Source of the DNA: a virus | Taxonomy: Duplodnaviria > Heunggongvirae > Uroviricota > Caudoviricetes | Strand: one strand, 5' to 3' | Virus record (IMG/VR): IMGVR_UViG_2724679239_000008 | Length of the DNA: 38,640 nt | In this document: positions 7,522-37,088 of the stretch, piece by piece | How positions within the stretch are numbered: position 1 is the stretch's first letter | How the letters are laid out: every line of letters starts with the position of its first letter | Notes under the pieces: model-generated | Databases searched by the model: none | What the model was told of the DNA's origin: nothing | The model's input: the letters and a program-made list of their open reading frames with translations, nothing else | Program-made: the position numbers and the translations under genes

Positions 7522-7914
7522 CTAGAGCGCTCGATATGGAATTTGAAGATTAAGCTGGAACCAGCCATTCTTTTCACCAACGGCTATTGAGGAAACAGCC
7601 TGGTAGCTGAGACGATCATCATCCTGAAATTCAAACAATTCTCGCAATTTATCCGCCGTCTCAGTAATAAGTTTTGAGCCAGAGCCTGCGGGAACAAATA
7701 ACTGAATAATAATTATACCCGTGCGATAAACAACCGGACCCGCACCAATTTCATTAGTCCCAGCCAGACCGGGGATATCACTTAACCGCGCCCAGATTAA
7801 CTTACCTGACGGATCGAATGTTGGCCCGTTTGGATATAATACATCTTTTCCATCAATAACCGTCTGTGCCGTCATTCTGGAAATAACAGCATTTCTGATT
7901 TCAGTAAAAGTCAT
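7522..7914 (-). CDS. tail terminator / tail completion protein (synteny-based)
   Basis: 130-aa ORF between head-tail joining genes and major tail gene, 4-nt overlap with upstream gene. Confidence 0.45.
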   Translation of the reverse strand: MTFTEIRNAVISRMTAQTVIDGKDVLYPNGPTFDPSGKLIWARLSDIPGLAGTNEIGAGPVVYRTGIIIIQLFVPAGSGSKLITETADKLRELFEFQDDDRLSYQAVSSIAVGEKNGWFQLNLQIPYRAL

Positions 7915-8291
7915 TTATAAATCTGCGAAACACCATTAAAAGCATTAGCATACACACCTGTTGGCGCTTGTTGAGAATGTCCATCCTCAATAGATTCGGC
8001 ATAAGGCAGGTTATTCTGGATGTAGATGATTCCGTAATTCGCCGCTTTTGAAATAACCCCGATTCCACGTTGAAGTGCAATCGTGCCATTCGGATCCACA
8101 TTATCAGATATACTAAAATCTGGGTGCTGTAACGATACCAGATTATTATTTCTGAAACGCCCGGTATCAACCGGAGCGGCAATATCAATAGCTGTAAGAA
8201 TCTGAATAGCGATGTAGCGAATTTTCAGTCCCACATCTTCCTCAATCATCCCAACAAATATTGACGGTTCCAGATCCCATGCCTTTGCCAT
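7911..8291 (-). CDS. head-tail joining protein (neck; synteny-based)
   Basis: 126-aa ORF in tightly coupled head-tail connector block. Confidence 0.45.
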   Translation of the reverse strand: MAKAWDLEPSIFVGMIEEDVGLKIRYIAIQILTAIDIAAPVDTGRFRNNNLVSLQHPDFSISDNVDPNGTIALQRGIGVISKAANYGIIYIQNNLPYAESIEDGHSQQAPTGVYANAFNGVSQIYK

Positions 8292-8678
8292 TTACTTTCT
8301 CCTTAACTGGATAGAATAAACCGATGCGGAAGGATCTACATGTACTGTAATTATCTCGTATCGTTGTAACTGCCTTGATACAGGATCATAAGTCTCAATA
8401 ATATGTCCGATAGCAGGTTTATCCGTAACCTCACAGGCCAGAGCAGTTAACTTAAGGTCGCCGTGCAAAATATTAATTCCATCAACTCTGCCAAGCTTAT
8501 AGCGTGCCAACACACCTCGTCCGGTATATGTTGTTGTAAGTTCGCGGCCTGTCTCCGTCACAGGCTCCCACCCCTGGTGCGTAACGTAAGAACCAGAAAA
8601 ATTATTCACCGCGTCAGCTAAATCACCATCAAAAGCAGCGGCAACCTCATCCTGAATCTCATCACGAATCCCCATCAT
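8292..8678 (-). CDS. head closure / head-tail adaptor protein (synteny-based)
   Basis: 128-aa ORF, coupled to flanking genes. Confidence 0.45.
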   Translation of the reverse strand: MMGIRDEIQDEVAAAFDGDLADAVNNFSGSYVTHQGWEPVTETGRELTTTYTGRGVLARYKLGRVDGINILHGDLKLTALACEVTDKPAIGHIIETYDPVSRQLQRYEIITVHVDPSASVYSIQLRRK

Positions 8679-9070
8679 CCCCCCCTCACAACCCTGACTT
8701 GTGAGTGACTCAGTCCGTACGGTTTCAGCAGCGCCAGCGCAAGCTGTAAATCGGGCTCAAGCAATGCAGTGCTGTTTGCTGATAATTCAGCAAATGATTT
8801 CGATACACTAACCCCATCAGCCGACACAGTTTTATTTATAACAACACCAGAATCATTTTTCTGCTGAAATAACTTACCTACAGAAGCGACTCTGGCAGCA
8901 TATGCTCCAGCGAGCTTTACCTCGTCAGGAATACTGGATGGATCAACCTTCAGACTAAAGTTATTCAACCAGGCATTGGCCATTAAAACCGCTTTATTTT
9001 TAACATCCTCATTCGCCCAGTTTTTCCCAAGCGTATTATCAACATCATCACAGGTAACGTAAGTGATCAT
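8675..9070 (-). CDS. head-tail connector / DNA packaging protein (gp6-like, synteny-based)
   Basis: 131-aa ORF immediately downstream of capsid gene block. Confidence 0.45.
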   Translation of the reverse strand: MITYVTCDDVDNTLGKNWANEDVKNKAVLMANAWLNNFSLKVDPSSIPDEVKLAGAYAARVASVGKLFQQKNDSGVVINKTVSADGVSVSKSFAELSANSTALLEPDLQLALALLKPYGLSHSQVRVVRGG

Positions 9071-9073
9071 GCG

Positions 9074-9298
9074 CTACTCCTGTGTTTTCCAGCCCAGCGC
9101 CTTCCAATTGTCAACTTCATCAGGATGAACATTAGCGATTGTTGGGGCACCGGGGAATATCTGATTCTCGGTCATCATAACTACCAACTTAATCGGTGTT
9201 TTTTGTGGTTCCCTGGTTTGCGCCGCCTTCCGCTCCGACACTGCATTTTTTTGCGCGGCATCACGCTGTGCTCTTTGATCTTTAGTCAATACAGCCAT
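9074..9298 (-). CDS. small hypothetical head-region protein
   Basis: 74-aa ORF between capsid terminator and connector gene. Confidence 0.4.
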   Translation of the reverse strand: MAVLTKDQRAQRDAAQKNAVSERKAAQTREPQKTPIKLVVMMTENQIFPGAPTIANVHPDEVDNWKALGWKTQE

Positions 9299-9310
9299 AT
9301 ACCCTCCATT

Positions 9311-9335
9311 AAAAAAGGGACCGAAGCCCCTTTTT
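9311..9335 (-). terminator. rho-independent terminator after major capsid gene
   Basis: minus-sense GGGGC-UUCG-GUCCC (UUCG tetraloop, one G-U pair) followed by UUUUUU. Confidence 0.55.
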
Positions 9336-9339
9336 GATT

Positions 9340-10479
9340 TTATCCAATAATCAGGCAGCTATGCGCAGGTTTCACTGACGAAACGCCCCATGCCAGCCCA
9401 ACTTCATAACGTACCTGACGATACTGACGATACAGTGCAATCTGAAATGTAATTCCCGAGATTGGGTCCGTAACATTCATTACATCATCAGCGCTATCGC
9501 CGCCCTCCGGCATTGCCGGGGTACGGGATGCCAACAGAAATGCGTTGCGATCGAACGCCATATTTGCAGTAAATGAGCCGACAACCGTGATTGCAGTATC
9601 ATCAGCCAGATCCTGACGTAGACCTGGTGCAGCAAGGGTAATCAGATTACTGGTTGCAGCAGCCACAACATACTGATTAGGATCGCCATCGAAAGTAACA
9701 ATCTGCCCTGCCGAAATATTCCCCGAACCAGTATCAATGGAAATAAGAACATCACCTTCTTTCTTCTCACCATTCACAAGATAACCAGTTGCAGTGGCTT
9801 TTGGTACTCGTTTTACACCTGCCGAACTGTGAATACTGAATCCCTCCAGGCGCCCCAACACCCCCTCGCGCAGTAGCTGCTCAGTGCCAGATTCATTCAC
9901 TTTAAACAATACGGACTGTTTTCCGCGCAAATTAGCAATAGCGGTGGAGCCAAGTACCATCTGTAAATCGGTTGTCGGTGCCCCGTTATCCTCCAGAATC
10001 TGACGAGCCAGAGCCGCATCAGAAAGATCATCTTTAACACCAAACGGCGTTGTCCCCGCGGTCCCAACAGCACGAGAAGCACCGAAATACAGTGCGCCAA
10101 GATCAGCCTCAACCTCGTTTGCAAGTGCTCGAAAAGCTTGCTTGAACTGATCAGCCAGAATGGTGTTGTAAGTCCCGGAAGGACCAAGCGCCAGTTGTTC
10201 TTCACCATTCCATTTAACTGGCGCCATTTTAGATTTAGTAATTTTTACATCAACAGTGCCAATATTTTGATCTCCAGTATTCGGAGCTGACGGGCCCGGT
10301 ACGATATCTTCAGTTTTCGCATCAGGCGCAACTGGCGCGGTTACCGTTTGATCTTTTGCTGCAGCGTCAGCTTTTGCGTTTTTTGCTACCGCAGGAATAA
10401 AACCTACCTGCTCACGGGATACAACATCCAGGGCGGTGTAAATAGTCGGGATCAACCCGGTCAGGGTATTTCCAGCCAT
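9340..10479 (-). CDS. major capsid protein
   Basis: large ORF downstream of scaffold gene; start chosen at ATG 10479 (MAGNTLTGL...) with AAGGA upstream rather than the RBS-less track start at 10572. Confidence 0.7.
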   Translation of the reverse strand: MAGNTLTGLIPTIYTALDVVSREQVGFIPAVAKNAKADAAAKDQTVTAPVAPDAKTEDIVPGPSAPNTGDQNIGTVDVKITKSKMAPVKWNGEEQLALGPSGTYNTILADQFKQAFRALANEVEADLGALYFGASRAVGTAGTTPFGVKDDLSDAALARQILEDNGAPTTDLQMVLGSTAIANLRGKQSVLFKVNESGTEQLLREGVLGRLEGFSIHSSAGVKRVPKATATGYLVNGEKKEGDVLISIDTGSGNISAGQIVTFDGDPNQYVVAAATSNLITLAAPGLRQDLADDTAITVVGSFTANMAFDRNAFLLASRTPAMPEGGDSADDVMNVTDPISGITFQIALYRQYRQVRYEVGLAWGVSSVKPAHSCLIIG

Positions 10480-10578
10480 AATTAAATATTCCTTAAAATT
10501 TTGCGTAATTGTAAATGAATTGAGTAGTGAGCTATCCAGCCCTGACGCCAGTCCCCATCCAGGAACTGGCAAAATGTG

Positions 10579-11343
10579 TTAGTCAACGATAGTGATACCG
10601 TCTTTCAGTGCGTTTTGCTTACCTGCAACATCCAGTGCATCAAAAGCTGATCGCTTCATCGTTTTCTGACCAATATCATGCTGTGTCGGACGGGAGCCGC
10701 CACCATTGTTGCCACTGGCTTTCAGGATGTAGTCTTTCTGAGGGTAATTTTCGACGAGGAACTCCAGCGCCTCATCAAACTGCGCCAGTTCGCCTGGCTT
10801 CGTGCGGGAGTAAATTTTGTTGCCGGAAGCGTCATAAGCAACGATCTTCCCTTCTTCCACTTTGAATGACTGTCCGAAGCGGGCCTGTAATAAATCTGCC
10901 GGGATCGCAATTTTATCGGCAATATATTTTGAACCAGCAAAACTACCGCCAATCATGGAATCGTAAAGCTGCTTCTCCAGCATCTGAGAGCGTTGCTTTT
11001 CTTCGTCTAATTGCTGCTGAAAATTTTTCGTAATTTCTGCTTTAACCTGGTCAACCTGTCCCGCATCAATCAGTTTTTTCTGGTCAATTTTGGACAGCAT
11101 TTCCAGCGCCTCAATCGCCTTTTTCGGGTCATCGATGGCAGCGAACCTGGCAAGTTTTTCCTCTGCGGCCTCTTTAGCCAGACGATGATTTTTCGCCTCG
11201 CCATTAAGTTCTGTAATTTTTCTGGCTGCCAGCGGTGCATCGAAGCCGATTTCTTTACCATCATCATGCACATAAACTGGCAGACCAGCAGTGTCGATTT
11301 CTGCGTATTTTTTTCCGTTAATCTCTACTGTTTTCAGTTTCAT
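10579..11343 (-). CDS. capsid scaffolding protein
   Basis: charged, coiled-coil-rich ORF upstream of capsid gene; start at ATG 11343 (MKLKTVEINGKKY) with AGGT 6 nt upstream. Confidence 0.6.
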   Translation of the reverse strand: MKLKTVEINGKKYAEIDTAGLPVYVHDDGKEIGFDAPLAARKITELNGEAKNHRLAKEAAEEKLARFAAIDDPKKAIEALEMLSKIDQKKLIDAGQVDQVKAEITKNFQQQLDEEKQRSQMLEKQLYDSMIGGSFAGSKYIADKIAIPADLLQARFGQSFKVEEGKIVAYDASGNKIYSRTKPGELAQFDEALEFLVENYPQKDYILKASGNNGGGSRPTQHDIGQKTMKRSAFDALDVAGKQNALKDGITIVD

Positions 11344-12563: not shown

Positions 12564-13950
12564 TGATTCCCATCAGCGTTACGCCCTGATTTTTTAATTC
12601 ATCGATCACTTCCTCTGGACGGGAATCCTGATCGATAAATTTCAACGCCTGCAACACCCGAACCGCATCAATCTGACGTATATCACCACCCTGACGCAAT
12701 GACTGAACAGCCAGCGCGGAGGATGAGTCAAACACCTGGGCAGATACATCCAGCTCAGTGCGCACATCCACATTGCCGCCGCAACTCTCTCCGATCCATT
12801 CCGCCATTATCTGGAGAATATTATCGAGGGCATCTTCGAGGGAGTTCGCCATTGTATAAAGCGGCGAGTTTTCCTGCATCCGCTCTTCATTGGTCTGATC
12901 AACAGATTTGGTGGATGTATTTTCAGCCCGCAGAAGTTTAGCGCCGGCATGACGCATCTGATTTTCCAGTTTCTCCAGAGATGTTTCGCCAGACTCTATC
13001 GCGGCACCGCTATGCTCAACATATTCAAGGCCATTTTTTGCCCTGTCATCAAAAATCGTCGCGGTGGATGCGCCAACCGTCAGTTCTTCATTCCTGTCCA
13101 GACCGTAGGCCACCAGCAATGGGACGCGGGCAACATGCAAAATATTGTCCTGCTCACTCTGGCTTTGCCAGTGCTTGATATTCAGCAAACCAAGATTAAG
13201 CAATGGCGGTGTACCACGCATAAACCCTGTTTTCTTCGTATACAGTGTTACCAGAGGAATATCATCACGACTGGTATTCCATGACTCGTGAAGCGTCCAG
13301 ACAGATTCGCCATTAGTACCTTCACTGCGCCGATAAATTTCAACGCGACGGGGCATAATATGGCGGATCTGCTCCACCTTCTTCTGCCAGAAATCATCAC
13401 CATCAATAATGATGACCTCTTTTATACGCAAATCAGTGAGAACAACTTTCCCTTTTTCAACTTTCGATTTCCATCCAATAACCTGGCGTGGATTCAGCAT
13501 CGTAACGTACGGGCGACCACCGGCCGCGTTTTCATCGGCTTTTGTCCGAATCTCTTTCATATCCGTTCGTGGATAGTCTACCAGCGCATGCGCCACACCA
13601 TACTGAAATGCGAGACTGAAAAATTGCTGCGCCCACACATCCAGTCGGCTCCCCTCCATATCGATATTTTCTGCATATTCCCTGATTTTTTCCGGCGTCT
13701 CTTCACTCAGCACTGTCGGCTCTGCAAATATGCGCCCAATATTTTGCTTAATACTTTCTTCATACACAGGAAGTAGCGTAGCCACAGACAAGCGTTTTTT
13801 ATATGTGTCTTCATCTTCATTAGGCCATTTAGGGAGATAATTTTCCCCCTGCCTACGCATTTCAAGCGTGCCACCCATCAGTGCATCGTTAATATCCCAC
13901 GCCTCCAGCATATCGTTATAGTCGAGGTTGGGTGTTGATATATCAGCCAT
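12544..13950 (-). CDS. portal protein
   Basis: 468-aa ORF immediately downstream of terminase large subunit, acidic C-terminus. Confidence 0.8.
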   Translation of the reverse strand: MADISTPNLDYNDMLEAWDINDALMGGTLEMRRQGENYLPKWPNEDEDTYKKRLSVATLLPVYEESIKQNIGRIFAEPTVLSEETPEKIREYAENIDMEGSRLDVWAQQFFSLAFQYGVAHALVDYPRTDMKEIRTKADENAAGGRPYVTMLNPRQVIGWKSKVEKGKVVLTDLRIKEVIIIDGDDFWQKKVEQIRHIMPRRVEIYRRSEGTNGESVWTLHESWNTSRDDIPLVTLYTKKTGFMRGTPPLLNLGLLNIKHWQSQSEQDNILHVARVPLLVAYGLDRNEELTVGASTATIFDDRAKNGLEYVEHSGAAIESGETSLEKLENQMRHAGAKLLRAENTSTKSVDQTNEERMQENSPLYTMANSLEDALDNILQIMAEWIGESCGGNVDVRTELDVSAQVFDSSSALAVQSLRQGGDIRQIDAVRVLQALKFIDQDSRPEEVIDELKNQGVTLMGINDANSE

Positions 13951-13952
13951 AA

Positions 13953-16271
13953 TTAAATCCGAAGTGATGTAACTCTTCCGGTCGGTTTGACAATAGGGAA
14001 TTGCTTAACAATAAAATAACCTCCGGCATCATTCGGGTGATCGTTGCCAGATTTTTTATCAGGCTCACCCTTATCATCCCAAACCTGTTGCTCCAGAGAT
14101 TCGGCATATACCGGACAACGCTTCACATTAACTTTATAGCGACGCTCACCATTGGCATTGCAGAACATTGCATTCATTGAGTTAACGCGATCTTTTACTG
14201 GCGGGTTCGAACTGTTTACAACAACGTTAAAACCAGCCTGTTTAAGCTGAGCAATATCCGTCGCACTTGCGTTATTTGATTTTCTGGAATCCCCGGATGC
14301 ATCAGGATAAATATAAATTTCCCTTACTTTCCGATAATCATTCCCGTCATATAACCAGAAGCGCTCTTTAATAATACGGATCATATCTGGTGTATCGTAA
14401 GCGTTAATGATTTCAGTTACTGCGCATGGAAGCCCAAAACGTAACACATGAACGACTCCAGCCATTTTTCCGACGTTAAAATCCATCCCGATATATATCG
14501 GCTCACCTGGCTGTTCCTCTTCTTCGCAATTATTCAGTTTTCGGTCAAACTGATGGTAAACAGTACCACTTGTCAGGTTAGTAAACTGTCCTCGAAGATA
14601 GGCTTTAATCAGCTCTGGAGGATATGACTCAAGGAGCGAGGGAATGTAATCTGCTGGCAAATTCTTTTCATTATCGAAAGTAGATGCCTGTACCAGACCA
14701 TACAGTGAGACCAGCTCTGTTTTTTCACGTACGGCTTTAACAAACTGCTCGTAGACAAATTTGAATCCTTCCGGCGTGGTTGTAACGTCAATACCGTTGC
14801 GAAGTCCATCAACCTTATAACGCATACGCGCAATTATCTTGCGCCACGCTGTTCTGGCTTTTTCCTTCGGCAAAATGTCCAGTTCATCCACCAGCGCATT
14901 ACCAATTTTGAAACCGACGATCGTTTGCGGCTTCTCCATCGATCTGCAGATAGTGGTTCCCCGATACTGACGTCCGTAATAAAAATGAACTTCTTTATTT
15001 CCCTCGTTAATTTTTACATTTAGCCCCCAGTCGGCAGCAACTTCTTCAACTGTGGGATAAAAAATATCGCGAATTTGTGGATATGTAGGCGCAAAATATC
15101 CCTGATTGATACCCGGATGCTCCCAAATCCCCTTACATATGCCACCACACCCAACCCATGTTTTACCGCTATTGTGATGAATCGTCCCATCAGCAGTTAC
15201 GTAGCAGTTATTATCCAATACCTGGAGGTCATAATATGGCTCGGCCTTCTGCAACAGTGTTACACTCAATATGTTGCAGGTTTCGATTAAGGAGTTTGGT
15301 TTTGACGCCTCTTGACCGTTTAATTTGTGATTTAGCACATCCAGAACGTACCGTTTCAGAAGTTGCTTCTCTGGCAGGTTGTGACCGCAGTCATGTTTAT
15401 CGTTGCATATCTCGTTATGGGTTAACGCTGAAACAACACCAGAAGCCTGTCCCTCGAGAAAGTGCGAAGGACAGAATCCTCGCTCTTGCTGATGGTCACC
15501 GTACGTCGGCAGAGATCGCGGCGGAAGTTGGTTGCACAGAAAAGCACGTTCAAAATATTCTCCGAATTCACAACGCCAACCGGCTACCCTGTGGCGCCAG
15601 AAAGGGTGAGTTGAACCCCAGCTTTCGTGGTGGTCGAATTGTTGATCTGGATGGATATGCCGTTGTTCCAGCGCCTGCTGACCATCCATATATGCGCAGA
15701 ACAGGCATGATGTTTGAACATCGTTTGATCGCTGAAAAGAAGCTGGGGCGTTATCTGCTGCCATCAGAAGTTGTTGACCATATCGACGGGCTTCATCTGC
15801 ATAACACCCCAAGTAATCTGCGAGTTTTTGATTCAAACGTGGATCACCTGCGTGCAACGATTTCGGGACGGCGGCCAAACTGGTCAGAAGAAGGTTTTGC
15901 GAAGATGCAAATACCTTCACCGATTCGTCCAGACTATCCACAGATCGATAGCTACCGTCAGCGCAAAAAACGCGGTGATGTCCGCTTGCTACAAATTCTC
16001 CTCGCTGCGTCACTACTCGGTATAGATTCGCCACACCTTTTGGGTACGCACCACCACTTAGCGAAAGCTCAAATCGATTATTCTCATCCGACCAAGATAA
16101 AACGCGCATTGGTCGAGTTATTTCCTGAATGGGTAGAATCCCATTCTCTGTAACCACAGGCGTACTTCCCCTCAGGCAACCAAAACCAGCAACATAGGCT
16201 TTAAATTTATGAGGCATAGAAAGAAATCGCGCCTGAGGCACATTAAGCGTCGGAGAGATCATCTTCATCAC
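13953..16271 (-). CDS. terminase large subunit precursor containing an intein in the Walker A P-loop
   Basis: 772-aa ORF; N-extein ends KFKAYVAGFG, C-extein starts SGKTWVG (reconstitutes a P-loop); C-extein about 400 aa with nuclease-type C-terminus; coupled to small subunit and portal. Confidence 0.85.
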   Translation of the reverse strand: MMKMISPTLNVPQARFLSMPHKFKAYVAGFGCLRGSTPVVTENGILPIQEITRPMRVLSWSDENNRFELSLSGGAYPKGVANLYRVVTQRGEFVASGHHRVFCADGSYRSVDSLDESVKVFASSQNLLLTSLAAVPKSLHAGDPRLNQKLADYLGCYADEARRYGQQLLMAADNAPASFQRSNDVQTSCLFCAYMDGQQALEQRHIHPDQQFDHHESWGSTHPFWRHRVAGWRCEFGEYFERAFLCNQLPPRSLPTYGDHQQERGFCPSHFLEGQASGVVSALTHNEICNDKHDCGHNLPEKQLLKRYVLDVLNHKLNGQEASKPNSLIETCNILSVTLLQKAEPYYDLQVLDNNCYVTADGTIHHNSGKTWVGCGGICKGIWEHPGINQGYFAPTYPQIRDIFYPTVEEVAADWGLNVKINEGNKEVHFYYGRQYRGTTICRSMEKPQTIVGFKIGNALVDELDILPKEKARTAWRKIIARMRYKVDGLRNGIDVTTTPEGFKFVYEQFVKAVREKTELVSLYGLVQASTFDNEKNLPADYIPSLLESYPPELIKAYLRGQFTNLTSGTVYHQFDRKLNNCEEEEQPGEPIYIGMDFNVGKMAGVVHVLRFGLPCAVTEIINAYDTPDMIRIIKERFWLYDGNDYRKVREIYIYPDASGDSRKSNNASATDIAQLKQAGFNVVVNSSNPPVKDRVNSMNAMFCNANGERRYKVNVKRCPVYAESLEQQVWDDKGEPDKKSGNDHPNDAGGYFIVKQFPIVKPTGRVTSLRI
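15171..16178 (-). other. intein (336 codons) within terminase large subunit
   Basis: starts with Cys (CLRGSTPVVTENGILPIQEI), block B-like GEFVASGHHRVF, ends YDLQVLDNNCYVTADGTIHHN followed by Ser; codon boundaries verified on the sequence (gca at 16176-16178 = Cys, att at 15171-15173 = Asn). Confidence 0.75.
15236..16153 (+). CDS. HNH endonuclease (HNH_3-type with N-terminal HTH segments), encoded antisense inside the intein
   Basis: plus-strand ORF; ATG 15236 preceded by GGAGG (15224-15228); translation verified: GYAVVPAPADHPYMRRTGMMFEHRLIAEKKLGRYLLPSEVVDHIDGLHLHNTPSNLRVF; the track ORF starts further upstream at ATG 15158 without RBS. Confidence 0.65.
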   Translation: MARPSATVLHSICCRFRLRSLVLTPLDRLICDLAHPERTVSEVASLAGCDRSHVYRCISRYGLTLKQHQKPVPRESAKDRILALADGHRTSAEIAAEVGCTEKHVQNILRIHNANRLPCGARKGELNPSFRGGRIVDLDGYAVVPAPADHPYMRRTGMMFEHRLIAEKKLGRYLLPSEVVDHIDGLHLHNTPSNLRVFDSNVDHLRATISGRRPNWSEEGFAKMQIPSPIRPDYPQIDSYRQRKKRGDVRLLQILLAASLLGIDSPHLLGTHHHLAKAQIDYSHPTKIKRALVELFPEWVESHSL

Positions 16272-23294: not shown

Positions 23295-23450
23295 TTACTC
23301 CTCAGGTTCGTAAGCTGTGAAGACAGCGACCTCCGTCTGACCGGTTCGGATTCGTACCTCGCAGAGGTCTTTCCTCGTTACCAGTGCCGTAACAATGACG
23401 GTTAAACAGATGACGATCAGGGCGACTAACATCGCCTTTTGCTGCTTCAT
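23295..23450 (-). CDS. hok: Hok-family type I toxin
   Basis: MKQQKAMLVALIVICLTVIVTALVTRKDLCEVRIRTGQTEVAVFTAYEPEE matches Hok/Gef family pattern; AGGAG RBS 9 nt upstream. Confidence 0.8.
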   Translation of the reverse strand: MKQQKAMLVALIVICLTVIVTALVTRKDLCEVRIRTGQTEVAVFTAYEPEE

Positions 23451-23507
23451 AGCCTGCTTCTCCTTGCCTTTCGGCACGTAAGAGGCTAACCTACATGTGT
23501 TCAGCAT
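23295..23507 (-). CDS. mok: Mok-like in-frame N-terminally extended reading frame
   Basis: in-frame ATG 19 codons upstream (MLNTCRLASYVPKGKEKQA...), same arrangement I recall for mokC/hokC. Confidence 0.45.
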   Translation of the reverse strand: MLNTCRLASYVPKGKEKQAMKQQKAMLVALIVICLTVIVTALVTRKDLCEVRIRTGQTEVAVFTAYEPEE

Positions 23508-23575
23508 GGATTGAGCCTCAGATTAATGTTAAGCGTCCTGCAAGACGCGTAATGTTAACTGGGGCTTTTCTCTAT
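23500..23575 (+). ncRNA. sok: possible Sok-like antisense RNA (inferred, boundaries approximate)
   Basis: plus-strand TTGCCT (23464-23469), 17-nt spacer, TAACCT (23487-23492) opposite the mok start; imperfect hairpin 23529-23556; by analogy with hok/sok loci. Confidence 0.25.
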
Positions 23576-23877
23576 CTGCCTTTTGGTGTTCATGCCTGAG
23601 ACAGATAGCCTCAAGCACCCGCAGCGATTTTTACTTAACTCTTCTTTTCACGCAAACCGTTTTTATCCTCAACGTAAATTTTACCAATATCGCCTAACAC
23701 ATCTCCCCTGCCCTGACGATGCTTACCTCTTTACACAGCCCCCTATTTATGTATTATCTTTTACAAACAACCAGTTAAGAGCTATCGGTGGGTGAGTTCG
23801 CCCTGCGGTAGCTTTTCCTTTATACATTGCATCTATTTATGTTCTAGTATATTCCTATATGTTCAAAAGGACTTTTC

Positions 23878-24810
23878 ATGCACAGCGTTAATTTCTATTC
23901 ATTCCGCGTATTGACCCATAAAGGCAGTCGAGCCAGCAAAAAGCTTAATGAATTGGGTTTAAGTAATAAAAAAACGGCATATGAACTTTTTGTTGATTAT
24001 TTTACTCTATATAAAAACACCCCCATCGAGTTTGGCGTATCCAAAACTAAAATATCTCTAGAACAACACGCTAAACTTCACTTTGATAACACAAAGAAAA
24101 TTATATATGGTTATATAAAAGTTGGGAAATATGGAGAAAGTAGTGAAATAAAGGATGTAAAACTCAAAAAAATCCACTACAGGACAACTGCTTATGATGT
24201 AACACTCAAAGAACGTTATATTTTAATATACCTACCAGACACCCTTGAAGAAGGAATTATTGCATTCCATTCTTGCGATAATATTTCTGCTCGAGGTGTC
24301 CTTTCTGATTCTATCACTGAATATCTAAAAAACAAATTTCAACTCGAAGCAAGAATCAATCCATTACATCATAAGAAAATCCCTCAATATATTCTCAATT
24401 CCGAATTAAAACAAATTAAGGCTCAAGGATATAAAGCACCAAAAGACATTGCTGATTCCTTTGGTCAAAACAAAACAAACATCAAGACAGACTTAATAAT
24501 AAAAGCAAACGATGGCATGTTCGGAAGTTTCAGGGATTTAAGAAACAAGAATATAGGAAACATCATTGAGATTATTGAAGATAAATGTGATGCAATAAAA
24601 GTAAGCTTACAGCTCGGCAGTCGGACTGTCGTTTTCAATTATGATACCATACTAAAAAAAGGAATTTCCGCAGAGTTAGATGATAATGATCTAAAAATCG
24701 ACCCATTAACAGGCATACCTGATCTAACAGCACTTCATGACACGATAAAAAACCTTTCTAATGATATATTGTTAGAACTGCATAGCGGAAACAAAGGGGT
24801 GATCATATGA
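23878..24810 (+). CDS. hypothetical soluble protein, first gene of AT-rich two-gene operon (candidate sensor of a Rex-like module)
   Basis: 310-aa ORF, clearly lower GC than flanks, AAGGA RBS; ATGA overlap with downstream gene. Confidence 0.6.
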   Translation: MHSVNFYSFRVLTHKGSRASKKLNELGLSNKKTAYELFVDYFTLYKNTPIEFGVSKTKISLEQHAKLHFDNTKKIIYGYIKVGKYGESSEIKDVKLKKIHYRTTAYDVTLKERYILIYLPDTLEEGIIAFHSCDNISARGVLSDSITEYLKNKFQLEARINPLHHKKIPQYILNSELKQIKAQGYKAPKDIADSFGQNKTNIKTDLIIKANDGMFGSFRDLRNKNIGNIIEIIEDKCDAIKVSLQLGSRTVVFNYDTILKKGISAELDDNDLKIDPLTGIPDLTALHDTIKNLSNDILLELHSGNKGVII

Positions 24811-25361
24811 ATAAAATAAATGTGCTGGGTGTAATAATAAAACACTACAAAACAATGTCAGATCAGCGTGGAACAATGTTGATGAGCGACATTATCGTAC
24901 ATTTTATTGTTCCGCTATCTCTTTCTTTCGTTCTGTGCTGGACATACGGAATAATGAAACCGGCAATTGCTTCCGTCTTCGTTAACTTCGGGGCTATTAC
25001 AACAGCACTATTAATGAGTGCAGTAATAATGATTTATGAACAAAAACAAAAAACCATTACTAAGATATCAGACATAATTGAAGGACACAAATCCCGAGAC
25101 AAATTGATATCATTAAACACTAACAAAACCATATATGAGCAGTTATGCCACAACGTCGCTTATGCAATATTAACTTCAATAGTATTGGTTATATTTTCAG
25201 TGATAATATATTTCCTGCCTGACAATGCAGTGGATTTAATGAAATGGTATTTTCGCGCACCTGCATATATTGTTAGCTTTTTAGCCTATACATCCTTTTT
25301 TATCACTGTTATAACGTTCTTAATGGTAATCAAAAGGTTTAGCACAATTTTAGATAATTGA
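24807..25361 (+). CDS. hypothetical membrane protein with four predicted TM helices (candidate effector)
   Basis: 184-aa ORF, four hydrophobic segments of about 20 aa each, translationally coupled to upstream gene. Confidence 0.6.
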   Translation: MNKINVLGVIIKHYKTMSDQRGTMLMSDIIVHFIVPLSLSFVLCWTYGIMKPAIASVFVNFGAITTALLMSAVIMIYEQKQKTITKISDIIEGHKSRDKLISLNTNKTIYEQLCHNVAYAILTSIVLVIFSVIIYFLPDNAVDLMKWYFRAPAYIVSFLAYTSFFITVITFLMVIKRFSTILDN

Positions 25362-25368
25362 ACAGCGG

Positions 25369-25391
25369 AACAGCCGCCCTTTCGGGCGGCC
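25369..25391. terminator. possible hairpin terminator after the AT-rich operon
   Basis: perfect GCCGCCC-TTTC-GGGCGGC hairpin but weak T-tract. Confidence 0.3.
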
Positions 25392-25494
25392 TCCTGATGT
25401 TTTGAGGGTGCAGGAACCCCTCCGGTTAAGGATTTAATAAAAATCACTTCTGATTTAAATTTTCAGTGTTTTGTTGTCAGGTGATTTATCGCCT

Positions 25495-25806
25495 TTACGC
25501 TTCAGCTTTATTTCGCAACCAGACACAAACCGGGCCATCTTCGGTGTCATGTATTGAACCAATAAACCATCCATCGCCCTCTGGTCGTTCCGGTTCCCAT
25601 GCAGAAATATCAGCATCACAAGCATCAAAGTCAGCACATCCTTCGTCTCTGAAGCAGAGGACGTATTGAAGTTTATTTTCCTCCATCCATGCGTTAAACT
25701 CTTCCGTTGAAATATGTTCTCTACCATCACAGAATTTTTCATATTCAGGATGCGTCCAGCAGCCATATTCATCACGTACTACTGGTATTTCTCTAATTTC
25801 TTTCAT
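25495..25806 (-). CDS. hypothetical acidic Cys-containing phage protein
   Basis: 103-aa ORF with protein-like composition; the overlapping 106-aa frame looks like a shadow ORF. Confidence 0.45.
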   Translation of the reverse strand: MKEIREIPVVRDEYGCWTHPEYEKFCDGREHISTEEFNAWMEENKLQYVLCFRDEGCADFDACDADISAWEPERPEGDGWFIGSIHDTEDGPVCVWLRNKAEA

Positions 25807-26056
25807 TTCTGTTCTCCCACGTTTTCAGACTTTCACCACAGAACGGGCAAAAACACATTGCAACACCACGACCGATATATTGCCCAGAGTGAATTTGAGC
25901 AATATCTATGCCTGACTCGCCGGTGTTTATGTTCACACGTTCCGGGATAAATATGCCTTTACTCTTGAATGTTGGATTTCCATATTCGAGAGATTTTGCC
26001 AAAGCCGCGCACGGTTCTATCTTGTTGCCATTAACCTGACATTTTGATGCGTTCAC
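25793..26056 (-). CDS. hypothetical protein with C-terminal zinc-ribbon-like CFCPFCG
   Basis: start reassigned to GTG 26056 with AGGAGG upstream and GTGA overlap with upstream stop. Confidence 0.4.
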   Translation of the reverse strand: MNASKCQVNGNKIEPCAALAKSLEYGNPTFKSKGIFIPERVNINTGESGIDIAQIHSGQYIGRGVAMCFCPFCGESLKTWENRNERN

Positions 26057-26469
26057 AGTACCACCTCCTGAAAATTTCCCTGATAGAAATCCAGTACACG
26101 CTGCATAGCTTCGCTCTGACGGCACTCGCGACAAATTATGTTCTGTCGTCTGTTGTAACAGCGTATTTCACCATCCGGCAATGAATAAATCAGCTCGGGG
26201 TCTCTCTTCTTTTTCGCTGTACCTTTCGACATCTCTTTACGGGCCTTTATCCAGTCCTTGCGCGCCTGCTCCGAAGGAAATATCCCGTGCCCCGAACCAT
26301 ATACTATGCCACTGCCCACCAGCTCTTTCGCCAGAACTTCTATCAGGTGTCTCGTTGCTCCGGTTTCATCTTCCAGTTGCTTACGCGTTTTCCTCCCGTC
26401 TCTGCGCACCAGTTCCACAATACGCGCCTTCAGTTGCTCCCGATATTCAGGTGTAAAAACGTTTCTCAT
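26053..26469 (-). CDS. hypothetical winged-helix-like protein
   Basis: start at ATG 26469 (MRNVFTPEY) with GTGAGG upstream. Confidence 0.45.
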   Translation of the reverse strand: MRNVFTPEYREQLKARIVELVRRDGRKTRKQLEDETGATRHLIEVLAKELVGSGIVYGSGHGIFPSEQARKDWIKARKEMSKGTAKKKRDPELIYSLPDGEIRCYNRRQNIICRECRQSEAMQRVLDFYQGNFQEVVL

Positions 26470-36697: not shown

Positions 36698-36907
36698 ATG
36701 AGAGAAAAGACAATGCGATATGAAAAAGTTAAGCCATGTCCGTTTTGTGGTTGTCCATCTGTAACAGTGAAAGCCATTTCAGGGTATTACCGGGCAAAAT
36801 GCAACGGCTGTGAATCCCGAACTGGCTATGGTGGAAGTGAGAAAGAAGCCCTCGAAAGATGGAATAAACGAACCGCTGAAAATATTAATGGAGGCATCTA
36901 TGTATAA
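36698..36907 (+). CDS. lar: Lar/RalR-like restriction alleviation protein (start may be ATG 36713)
   Basis: MRYEKVKPCPFCGCPSVTVKAISGYYRAKCNGCESRTGYGGSEKEALERWNKR zinc-ribbon; position after recombination genes. Confidence 0.55.
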   Translation: MREKTMRYEKVKPCPFCGCPSVTVKAISGYYRAKCNGCESRTGYGGSEKEALERWNKRTAENINGGIYV

Positions 36908-37088
36908 AATTACCGCCACAATTGAAAAGGAAGGTGGTACTCCTACTAACTGGACAAGATATTCAAAATCTAAACTAACGAAATCAGAATGCGAAAAAAT
37001 GCTCTCAGGGAAAAAAGAAGCAGGCGTTTCCAGAGAGCAAAAAGTAAAACTGATGAATTTTAATTGCGAGAAACTTCAGTCCTGGTAA
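36900..37088 (+). CDS. small hypothetical protein (62 aa)
   Basis: ATG 36900 with GGAGG upstream (MYKITATIEKEGGTPTNW...); track ORF 36810..37088 probably starts too early. Confidence 0.4.
   Translation: MYKITATIEKEGGTPTNWTRYSKSKLTKSECEKMLSGKKEAGVSREQKVKLMNFNCEKLQSW

Follow-up and report, generated by a model that had tools for sequence, protein, structure and literature searches.

What is the function of two small, unannotated genes that lie against the direction of all their annotated neighbours in a Rac-type prophage of Escherichia coli? The genes, here termed A and B, are carried by a 38,640-nt stretch of tailed-phage DNA (IMG/VR virus record IMGVR_UViG_2724679239_000008; Caudoviricetes), referred to below as the window, which is 99.9% identical to E. 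coli MEI003. A sequence-only reading of the window had proposed that the pair is a candidate Rex-like abortive-infection module, consisting of a soluble protein and a small membrane protein. Our analysis supports that proposal through the predicted fold of A, the predicted topology of B, the strict pairing of the two genes, their conservation, and their mobile and defence-associated contexts. A and B probably constitute a RexAB-type two-component abortive-infection module, carried by the Rac prophage as cargo that is expressed in the lysogen.

Gene A (23878..24810, + strand) is an ATG-initiated open reading frame (ORF) of 310 amino acids (aa) and is the proposed sensor/activator. Gene B (24807..25361, + strand), also ATG-initiated, encodes 184 aa and is the proposed pore or channel effector. 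By their coordinates, the two ORFs overlap by four bases (ATGA), and this overlap suggests translational coupling. The guanine-plus-cytosine (GC) content was 0.332 in A and in B, compared with 0.466 for the whole window; when calculated in 500-base intervals it was 0.316-0.364 across the pair and ~0.47-0.52 in the flanks. All annotated neighbours are on the opposite strand: ydaV, DUF1627, DUF977 and two small genes on one flank, and hok, DUF1367, DUF1364 and a DUF1133/Q-like gene on the other. The sequence-only reading had described the same two ORFs (coordinates, strand and lengths), their AT-richness, their antisense orientation and the ATGA overlap, and all of these features were reproduced here.

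Close homologues formed 33 clusters for A and 60 for B, all of them unannotated and all restricted to Enterobacterales. The largest of these clusters carry Salmonella enterica names, as do the nearest ones (96-98% identity; 361 and 398 member sequences). Strain EC11 has a 78%-identical variant of the pair in a lambdoid prophage with the same hok flank. Comparison of this variant with the window gave 0.12-0.15 nonsynonymous differences per site (pN) and 0.77-0.81 synonymous differences per site (pS) for A and B; the two genes were constrained about equally, and synonymous sites were saturated between the two copies. The low pN against saturated pS indicates strong purifying selection on both genes. 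Together with the 33 and 60 homologue clusters, it indicates that A and B are real genes and not chance ORFs.

An exhaustive profile search of 1.84 billion representatives, with members clustered at 50% identity, revealed a large A superfamily: at least 581 clusters at E ≤ 1e-3, and 117 at E ≤ 1e-10. Nearly all members are 300-315 aa long, and many start with MHS-x-x-x-Y-x-[IVL]-R. Ten sampled members had no match in Pfam or PADLOC. In the member P0110, residues 212-257 gave a marginal match to PADLOC Cas2_II (E 0.003), which is probably noise; E. coli Cas2 is listed among the structural relatives of RexA in the RexA paper.

Outside the window, each of the 25 loci with enough sequence had a homologue of B directly 3′ of the A-like gene and in the same orientation, with a spacing of -16 to +12. 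The only two loci without a B homologue after A were both contig ends. The paired loci span Enterobacterales, Halomonadaceae, a freshwater metagenome, Pseudomonas and the alphaproteobacterium Xanthobacter. The identities of A and B co-varied (Spearman 0.84), and across the family B was better conserved than A. A sister subfamily, ~40% identical to A/B, corresponds to a protein named 'MULTISPECIES Gammaproteobacteria' (loci L022-L027, e.g. L022:6001-7469), with Enterobacter, Proteus, Salmonella, Acinetobacter 'A023', V. cholerae and Cronobacter as hosts. Its locus lies between an integrase gene and an IetA/IetS pair plus resolvase (L022 neighbours at 7765-11318); from the ORF name and host range only, we would guess that this is an SGI1/AGI1-type integrative island.

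Protein A is basic (isoelectric point [pI] 9.1) and has no hydrophobic segment. Neither A nor B had a match in PADLOC v2, Pfam or NCBIfam; in PHROGs the only matches were phrog_15676 and phrog_15250, both function-unknown families, and a PDB sequence search with A and B was empty. The description of A as a soluble protein of about 300 aa and the remark that neither protein could be recognised as a known family were thus borne out, the latter also by the scan of a defence database (PADLOC v2), a kind of search that the sequence-only reading had recommended. The structural search that it had likewise recommended was informative: the best match of the A model was the crystal structure of RexA, and the published structural neighbours of RexA were also common to A. 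The A model has the two-domain, RdgC-like fold of RexA. A is predicted to be a cytoplasmic protein with a RexA/RdgC-like fold.

A link between A and RexA was also sought at the level of sequence profiles. A 132-sequence alignment of the A superfamily was compared, using hhalign, with a 33-sequence alignment of the RexA family (members of PF15969). One column setting gave a collinear local alignment of 98 columns (E 0.019), and another gave 127 columns with a score of 28.9 (E 0.003). For comparison, a reversed control gave 15.2, and the scores of 30 column-shuffled controls had their median at ~14.5 and went up to 26.1. This weak signal fits remote homology of A and RexA without proving it.

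Protein B has four hydrophobic segments, at about residues 28-48, 55-77, 115-136 and 151-175. Lysine and arginine cluster in its two termini and in the loop at 78-114, a distribution from which an N-in/C-in topology is predicted. The AlphaFold2 (AF2) model of B is a helical bundle with a predicted local distance difference test score (pLDDT) of 85.9. The family alignment showed an invariant motif in the second transmembrane (TM) helix, VNFGAITTALLMS, followed by YDQK; N60, T65/T66 and N116 are among the invariant residues of B. B is thus predicted to span the inner membrane with four TM helices and to have both termini in the cytoplasm; topology prediction had been suggested as a check, and its outcome agrees with the four-helix membrane protein expected beforehand.

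The genomic contexts of the pair are diverse. It was present in 37 of 5,426 complete E. coli genomes (0.7%), and it occupies the nin-equivalent slot in several different lambdoid prophages; enterotoxigenic E. coli (ETEC) E24377A, one of the 37, carries it in a lambdoid prophage different from that of the window, again beside hokD. In the Pseudomonas filamentous phage PfAC16 (OR863247, L029:412-1883), the pair is the leftmost cargo, has a 4-nt overlap and adjoins the repressor. In Col(Ye4449)/MOBP mobilizable plasmids of 5.4-5.7 kb from Serratia, Klebsiella and Kluyvera, it is the main cargo and, apart from a RelE/ParE pair, almost the sole one (e.g. Serratia NZ_OX461107, L028:3690-5143, 4-nt overlap). 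In chromosomal or integrative islands, known defence genes directly adjoin the pair: IetA/IetS (E 3e-78 and 2e-22), an AbiJ_NTD4 protein, an Mrr-like type IV nuclease with HipA, a C5-methylase with a nuclease-like neighbour, and DUF4365. The pair also lies within the tail/baseplate module of a myovirus-type prophage (CP179928, L008:5066-6561; A-like protein named from Zymobacter sp.). These contexts point to a mobile conflict system.

The placement in CP179928 is unusual for lysogen-expressed cargo. The pair there is in the middle of the tail-morphogenesis operon, on the strand of the structural genes, between a Dit-like baseplate gene and the gene for an SLT-domain protein, possibly the tape measure.

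In the window, the prophage is at the usual Rac site and has intR, xisR, ralR, recT/recE, kilR, sieB, racR, ydaS/T/U/V, lysis genes and trkG, with a full head and tail module. The pair is flanked by the replication module on one side and the Q-like antiterminator on the other, a nin-equivalent position that agrees with the placement in the nin region given by the sequence-only reading. When the window was aligned with phage Rac (MN652886), homology extended through hok/sok, ended at 23638, and restarted at 25374-25438 over 65 bp (94% identity), with differing sequence on either side. At the position of A/B, phage Rac has an unrelated interval with five small hypothetical genes. Judged from this alignment, A/B is a sharply bounded cargo swap of ~1.7 kb (~23639-25373) in a variable slot.

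The hok toxin gene and sok antisense RNA (23295..23620, - strand) form the conserved left flank of this slot and are neighbours outside the system. The hok neighbour reported earlier was verified by an Rfam match to sok (RF01794) at 23445..23620 (- strand; 118.9 bits, gathering score 59) and by the Hok/Gef coding sequence annotated in the MEI003 record. Because homology to phage Rac stops at 23638, the upstream leader at 23639..23877 (+ strand) is specific to the cassette and part of the swapped cargo. It contains a candidate sigma-70-like promoter at 23730-23757 (+ strand; TTTACA, 16-nt spacer, TATTAT; 10 of 12 consensus matches), and an AAGGA ribosome-binding site is located ~9 nt ahead of the ATG of A. 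At the right boundary, a GC-rich, terminator-like hairpin (GCCGCCC-UUUC-GGGCGGC, 25373..25390) starts 12 nt past the stop codon of B. The hairpin folds with an energy of -21.9 kcal/mol when read from the + strand (z -1.8) and of -23.0 kcal/mol from the - strand (z -2.8); its U-tract is weak. The 65-bp element at 25374-25438, which contains this hairpin, may terminate transcription in both directions and act as a boundary at which cargo is exchanged by recombination. To the right of the cassette, the interval 25439-26064 (- strand) holds two small genes, at 25495-25806 (103 aa) and ~25793-26056 (87 aa), which have no homology to phage Rac, E24377A or EC11 at that place; it is a second variable segment adjoining the A/B slot.

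Several known systems resemble the pair. Lambda RexAB is likewise encoded by a prophage as a unit of two genes, in which the gene for the soluble protein precedes that for the membrane protein. It excludes phages such as T4 rII through membrane depolarisation, and RexA binds DNA as a dimer. RexA is basic, as is A (pI 8.6 and 9.1, respectively), and RexB has four TM segments by the hydropathy method used for B. The lambda genes are separated by 15 nt, whereas A and B overlap by 4 nt. Lambda rexAB adjoins the immunity repressor gene, with which it is co-transcribed, and the PfAC16 relative of the pair also adjoins a repressor gene.

Sucellos (sclA/sclB) is a cassette of the V. cholerae chromosomal integron (Darracq et al., bioRxiv 10.1101/2024.07.02.601686; Science 388, eads0768, 2025). 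It has a RexAB-like structure that Rex Pfam domains do not match, has its own promoter and needs both genes; SclB is a predicted pore, and the phenotype is abortive, infected cells dying early (bioRxiv 10.1101/2024.07.02.601686). Homologues of Sucellos (BLASTP, E < 1e-5, coverage ≥ 50%) are preferentially prophage-borne, "often in Salmonella" (bioRxiv 10.1101/2024.07.02.601686). Compared by description, A/B shares with Sucellos the RexAB-like predicted structure without a Rex Pfam match, the prophage-borne homologues and the Salmonella-named clusters; Sucellos differs in being an integron cassette, whereas A/B occupies a Rac prophage slot. From primer names, SclA/SclB appear to be VCA0367/0368. 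A scan of genome contigs with the B family gave seven loci, none from Vibrio. On the published description, A/B is likely a member of the Sucellos family.

RexABpp (PP_5643/PP_5644) is a validated defence pair of Pseudomonas putida prophage P1, and RexApp was linked to RexA by HHpred with 98% probability (PMC12894663), whereas the signal in the profile comparison of A with RexA is weak. Only primer-derived termini could be compared: the N-terminus of RexApp fits the A signature, whereas the termini of RexBpp (MLIGQLANP..., ...LYYLGYKLQE) are unlike those of the B family (MNKINV..., ...KRFSxILDN). Patterns made from the rexABpp primers, with the native GTG start, matched nothing in viral or metagenome contigs. 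Defence by Sucellos and by RexABpp depends on both genes, with the membrane protein as effector, and both systems act after infection, by growth arrest or lysis. Their assignment to the Rex type was based on evidence of the sort given here for A/B.

The actinobacteriophage pairs Sbash gp30/gp31, CarolAnn gp44/gp43 and Butters gp30/gp31 also combine a cytosolic and a membrane protein encoded by a prophage, and they exclude heterotypic phages. Their RexA-like proteins are dimeric, non-specific DNA binders. They differ from A/B in belonging to a different phylum and in the length of the soluble proteins (337-372 aa), and the Butters pair has its roles the other way round, in that the RexA-like cytosolic gp30 acts as effector and is sequestered by the membrane protein gp31. 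RdgC, in contrast, is a housekeeping protein that stands alone, with no membrane protein as partner, whereas A is mobile and always paired with B. The DefensePredictor paper does not mention Rex-like systems.

Several results weigh against assignment of A/B to the Rex type. Neither A nor B matched the Pfam models RexA (PF15969) and RexB (PF15968) at E ≤ 1, and at this threshold the two models also had no match in any of 65 diverse A relatives and 17 B relatives. Narrow-family hhalign comparisons gave no signal for A vs lambda RexA or for B vs RexB, and a HMMER profile comparison with lambda RexA gave no match. The broad profile-profile signal described above is weak, one shuffle having reached 26.1. 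The A model is moderately confident (pLDDT 76.5), was built from a shallow alignment, and is poor at residues 190-270. Fold searches with B matched generic helical bundles in PDB and nothing at E ≤ 1e-3 in BFVD, with no specific likeness to RexB. A and B are 31 and 40 residues longer, respectively, than their lambda counterparts. In the window, the pair is ~10 kb from racR and outside any PRM-type operon, unlike lambda rexAB. In scans for promoters and terminators, sites were no commoner than in shuffled sequence, so the signals given above are candidates only, and the evidence that the hairpin at 25373..25390 is a terminator is at consensus level.

These points bear on how closely A/B is related to RexAB. 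By sequence, the pair is outside the Pfam RexA and RexB families; it is probably a remote relative of RexAB. Compared by description, it most likely belongs with systems of the Sucellos/RexABpp type. We also consider, as a tentative possibility, that the A/B superfamily, for which Pfam, NCBIfam and PADLOC v2 have no model, is a distinct clade of RexA-fold sensors, much larger than canonical RexAB and separate from Sucellos and RexABpp, with a membrane partner (VNFGAITTALLMS...YDQK) unrelated to RexB. An ancestral RdgC/RexA-like DNA sensor would then have recruited a different membrane effector, and the clade would have spread over lambdoid, myovirus-type and filamentous prophages, Col plasmids and SGI1/AGI1-like islands, from Alpha- to Gammaproteobacteria.

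If A/B is a RexAB-type abortive-infection module, as we think probable, it would act as follows. The pair would be transcribed from its own promoter, antisense to the early-right operon of the prophage, and translated as a coupled unit. A would probably form a dimer and bind DNA non-specifically. It would sense a trigger from a superinfecting phage, either a phage protein or a DNA-protein intermediate of replication or recombination. Activated A would switch on B, which would oligomerise into a channel or pore in the inner membrane. Membrane potential or integrity would be lost, and the infected cell would be arrested or killed before new phage particles could form. In this scheme, four elements are modelled on lambda RexAB, Sucellos and RexABpp: the binding of DNA, the switching on of B by A, the formation of a pore and the abortive end of the infection.

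Other functions were considered less probable in view of how strictly A and B are paired, how A is predicted to fold, how varied the contexts are and how the validated relatives behave. The pair might be an addiction or stabilisation module with reversed roles, one partner being a toxin restrained by the other and defence being a by-product, as in Butters. The Butters gp30/gp31 precedent, the fact that tiny Col plasmids have the pair as main cargo together with a RelE/ParE toxin-antitoxin pair, and its location beside hok/sok in three different lambdoid prophages would fit such a module. However, the hok adjacency reflects a conserved flank, which phage Rac has together with unrelated cargo; the constraint on A and B (window vs EC11) is about equal; and the effector of Sucellos and RexABpp is the membrane protein, acting only with its partner. 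An addiction function is therefore judged unlikely. A role in the lysis-lysogeny decision of the prophage itself, like that of lambda RexA in biasing CI/Cro toward lytic growth, would explain why the PfAC16 pair adjoins a phage repressor. Such a role is quite unlikely, given that the window copy is so distant from racR, that copies also occur in a tail module, on Col plasmids and in non-prophage islands without a switch, and that a strictly conserved membrane partner would be needless for a switch role alone.

Superinfection exclusion of the Sie/Imm-like kind, in which DNA entry is blocked at the membrane and the cell is not killed, would agree with a prophage-encoded membrane protein expressed against the lytic genes, and exclusion functions are typical Rac cargo, sieB among them. 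We regard this as very unlikely, since entry blockers need no obligatory 310-aa cytoplasmic partner with a RexA/RdgC fold and the validated relatives act once infection has occurred. Highly improbable is a housekeeping or transport-accessory pair that merely resides on mobile elements. B has no recognisable effector domain, and what is known of the function of the pair comes from sequence and models; however, neither protein matched a transporter family, and the low GC content, the patchy spread, the diverse mobile contexts and the defence neighbours are the signature of a conflict system. Kiwa, which the sequence-only reading had also named for comparison, consists of a four-TM protein of ~190 aa (KwaA) and a soluble protein of ~310 aa (KwaB), and the sizes of B and A resemble these. 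Membership in Kiwa was rejected: A lacks the DUF4868 domain of KwaB, B is not of the KwaA family, and the membrane gene does not come first. A divergent Kiwa system is effectively refuted as an explanation.

Other loci of the prophage were also observed. The RalA antitoxin small RNA of the ralR/ralA type I toxin-antitoxin system is intact at 36906-37084 (- strand; Rfam RF02694, 209 bits). The Rac prophage in the window thus has at least two type I toxin-antitoxin loci (hok/sok and ralRA), plus sieB and kilR. A gene for a 331-aa HNH endonuclease (13119-14114, + strand; MEI003 J0G23_RS25835) lies between the terminase small- and large-subunit genes, on the opposite strand to them. The adjacent large-subunit gene is annotated as truncated, with the N-terminus missing; terL could have been split or displaced by the insertion of the HNH gene as a homing endonuclease.

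To our knowledge, Rex-type exclusion is the oldest known abortive-infection system. The type of mechanism proposed for A/B is already represented by lambda Rex, Sucellos and RexABpp; what is new is most likely the A/B pair as a member. If confirmed, our findings would give a function to two "hypothetical" genes in Rac and lambdoid prophages of ETEC and other E. coli and in many Salmonella prophages, and the distribution of Rex-type exclusion would extend far beyond what is apparent from the RexA and RexB Pfam families. The hundreds of diverse A/B clusters and the invariant motif of B provide comparative material on how a RexA-fold sensor activates a membrane effector. The A and B families merit hidden Markov models in annotation and defence-finder resources, and they are relevant to the prediction of host range for phage therapy in Enterobacterales.

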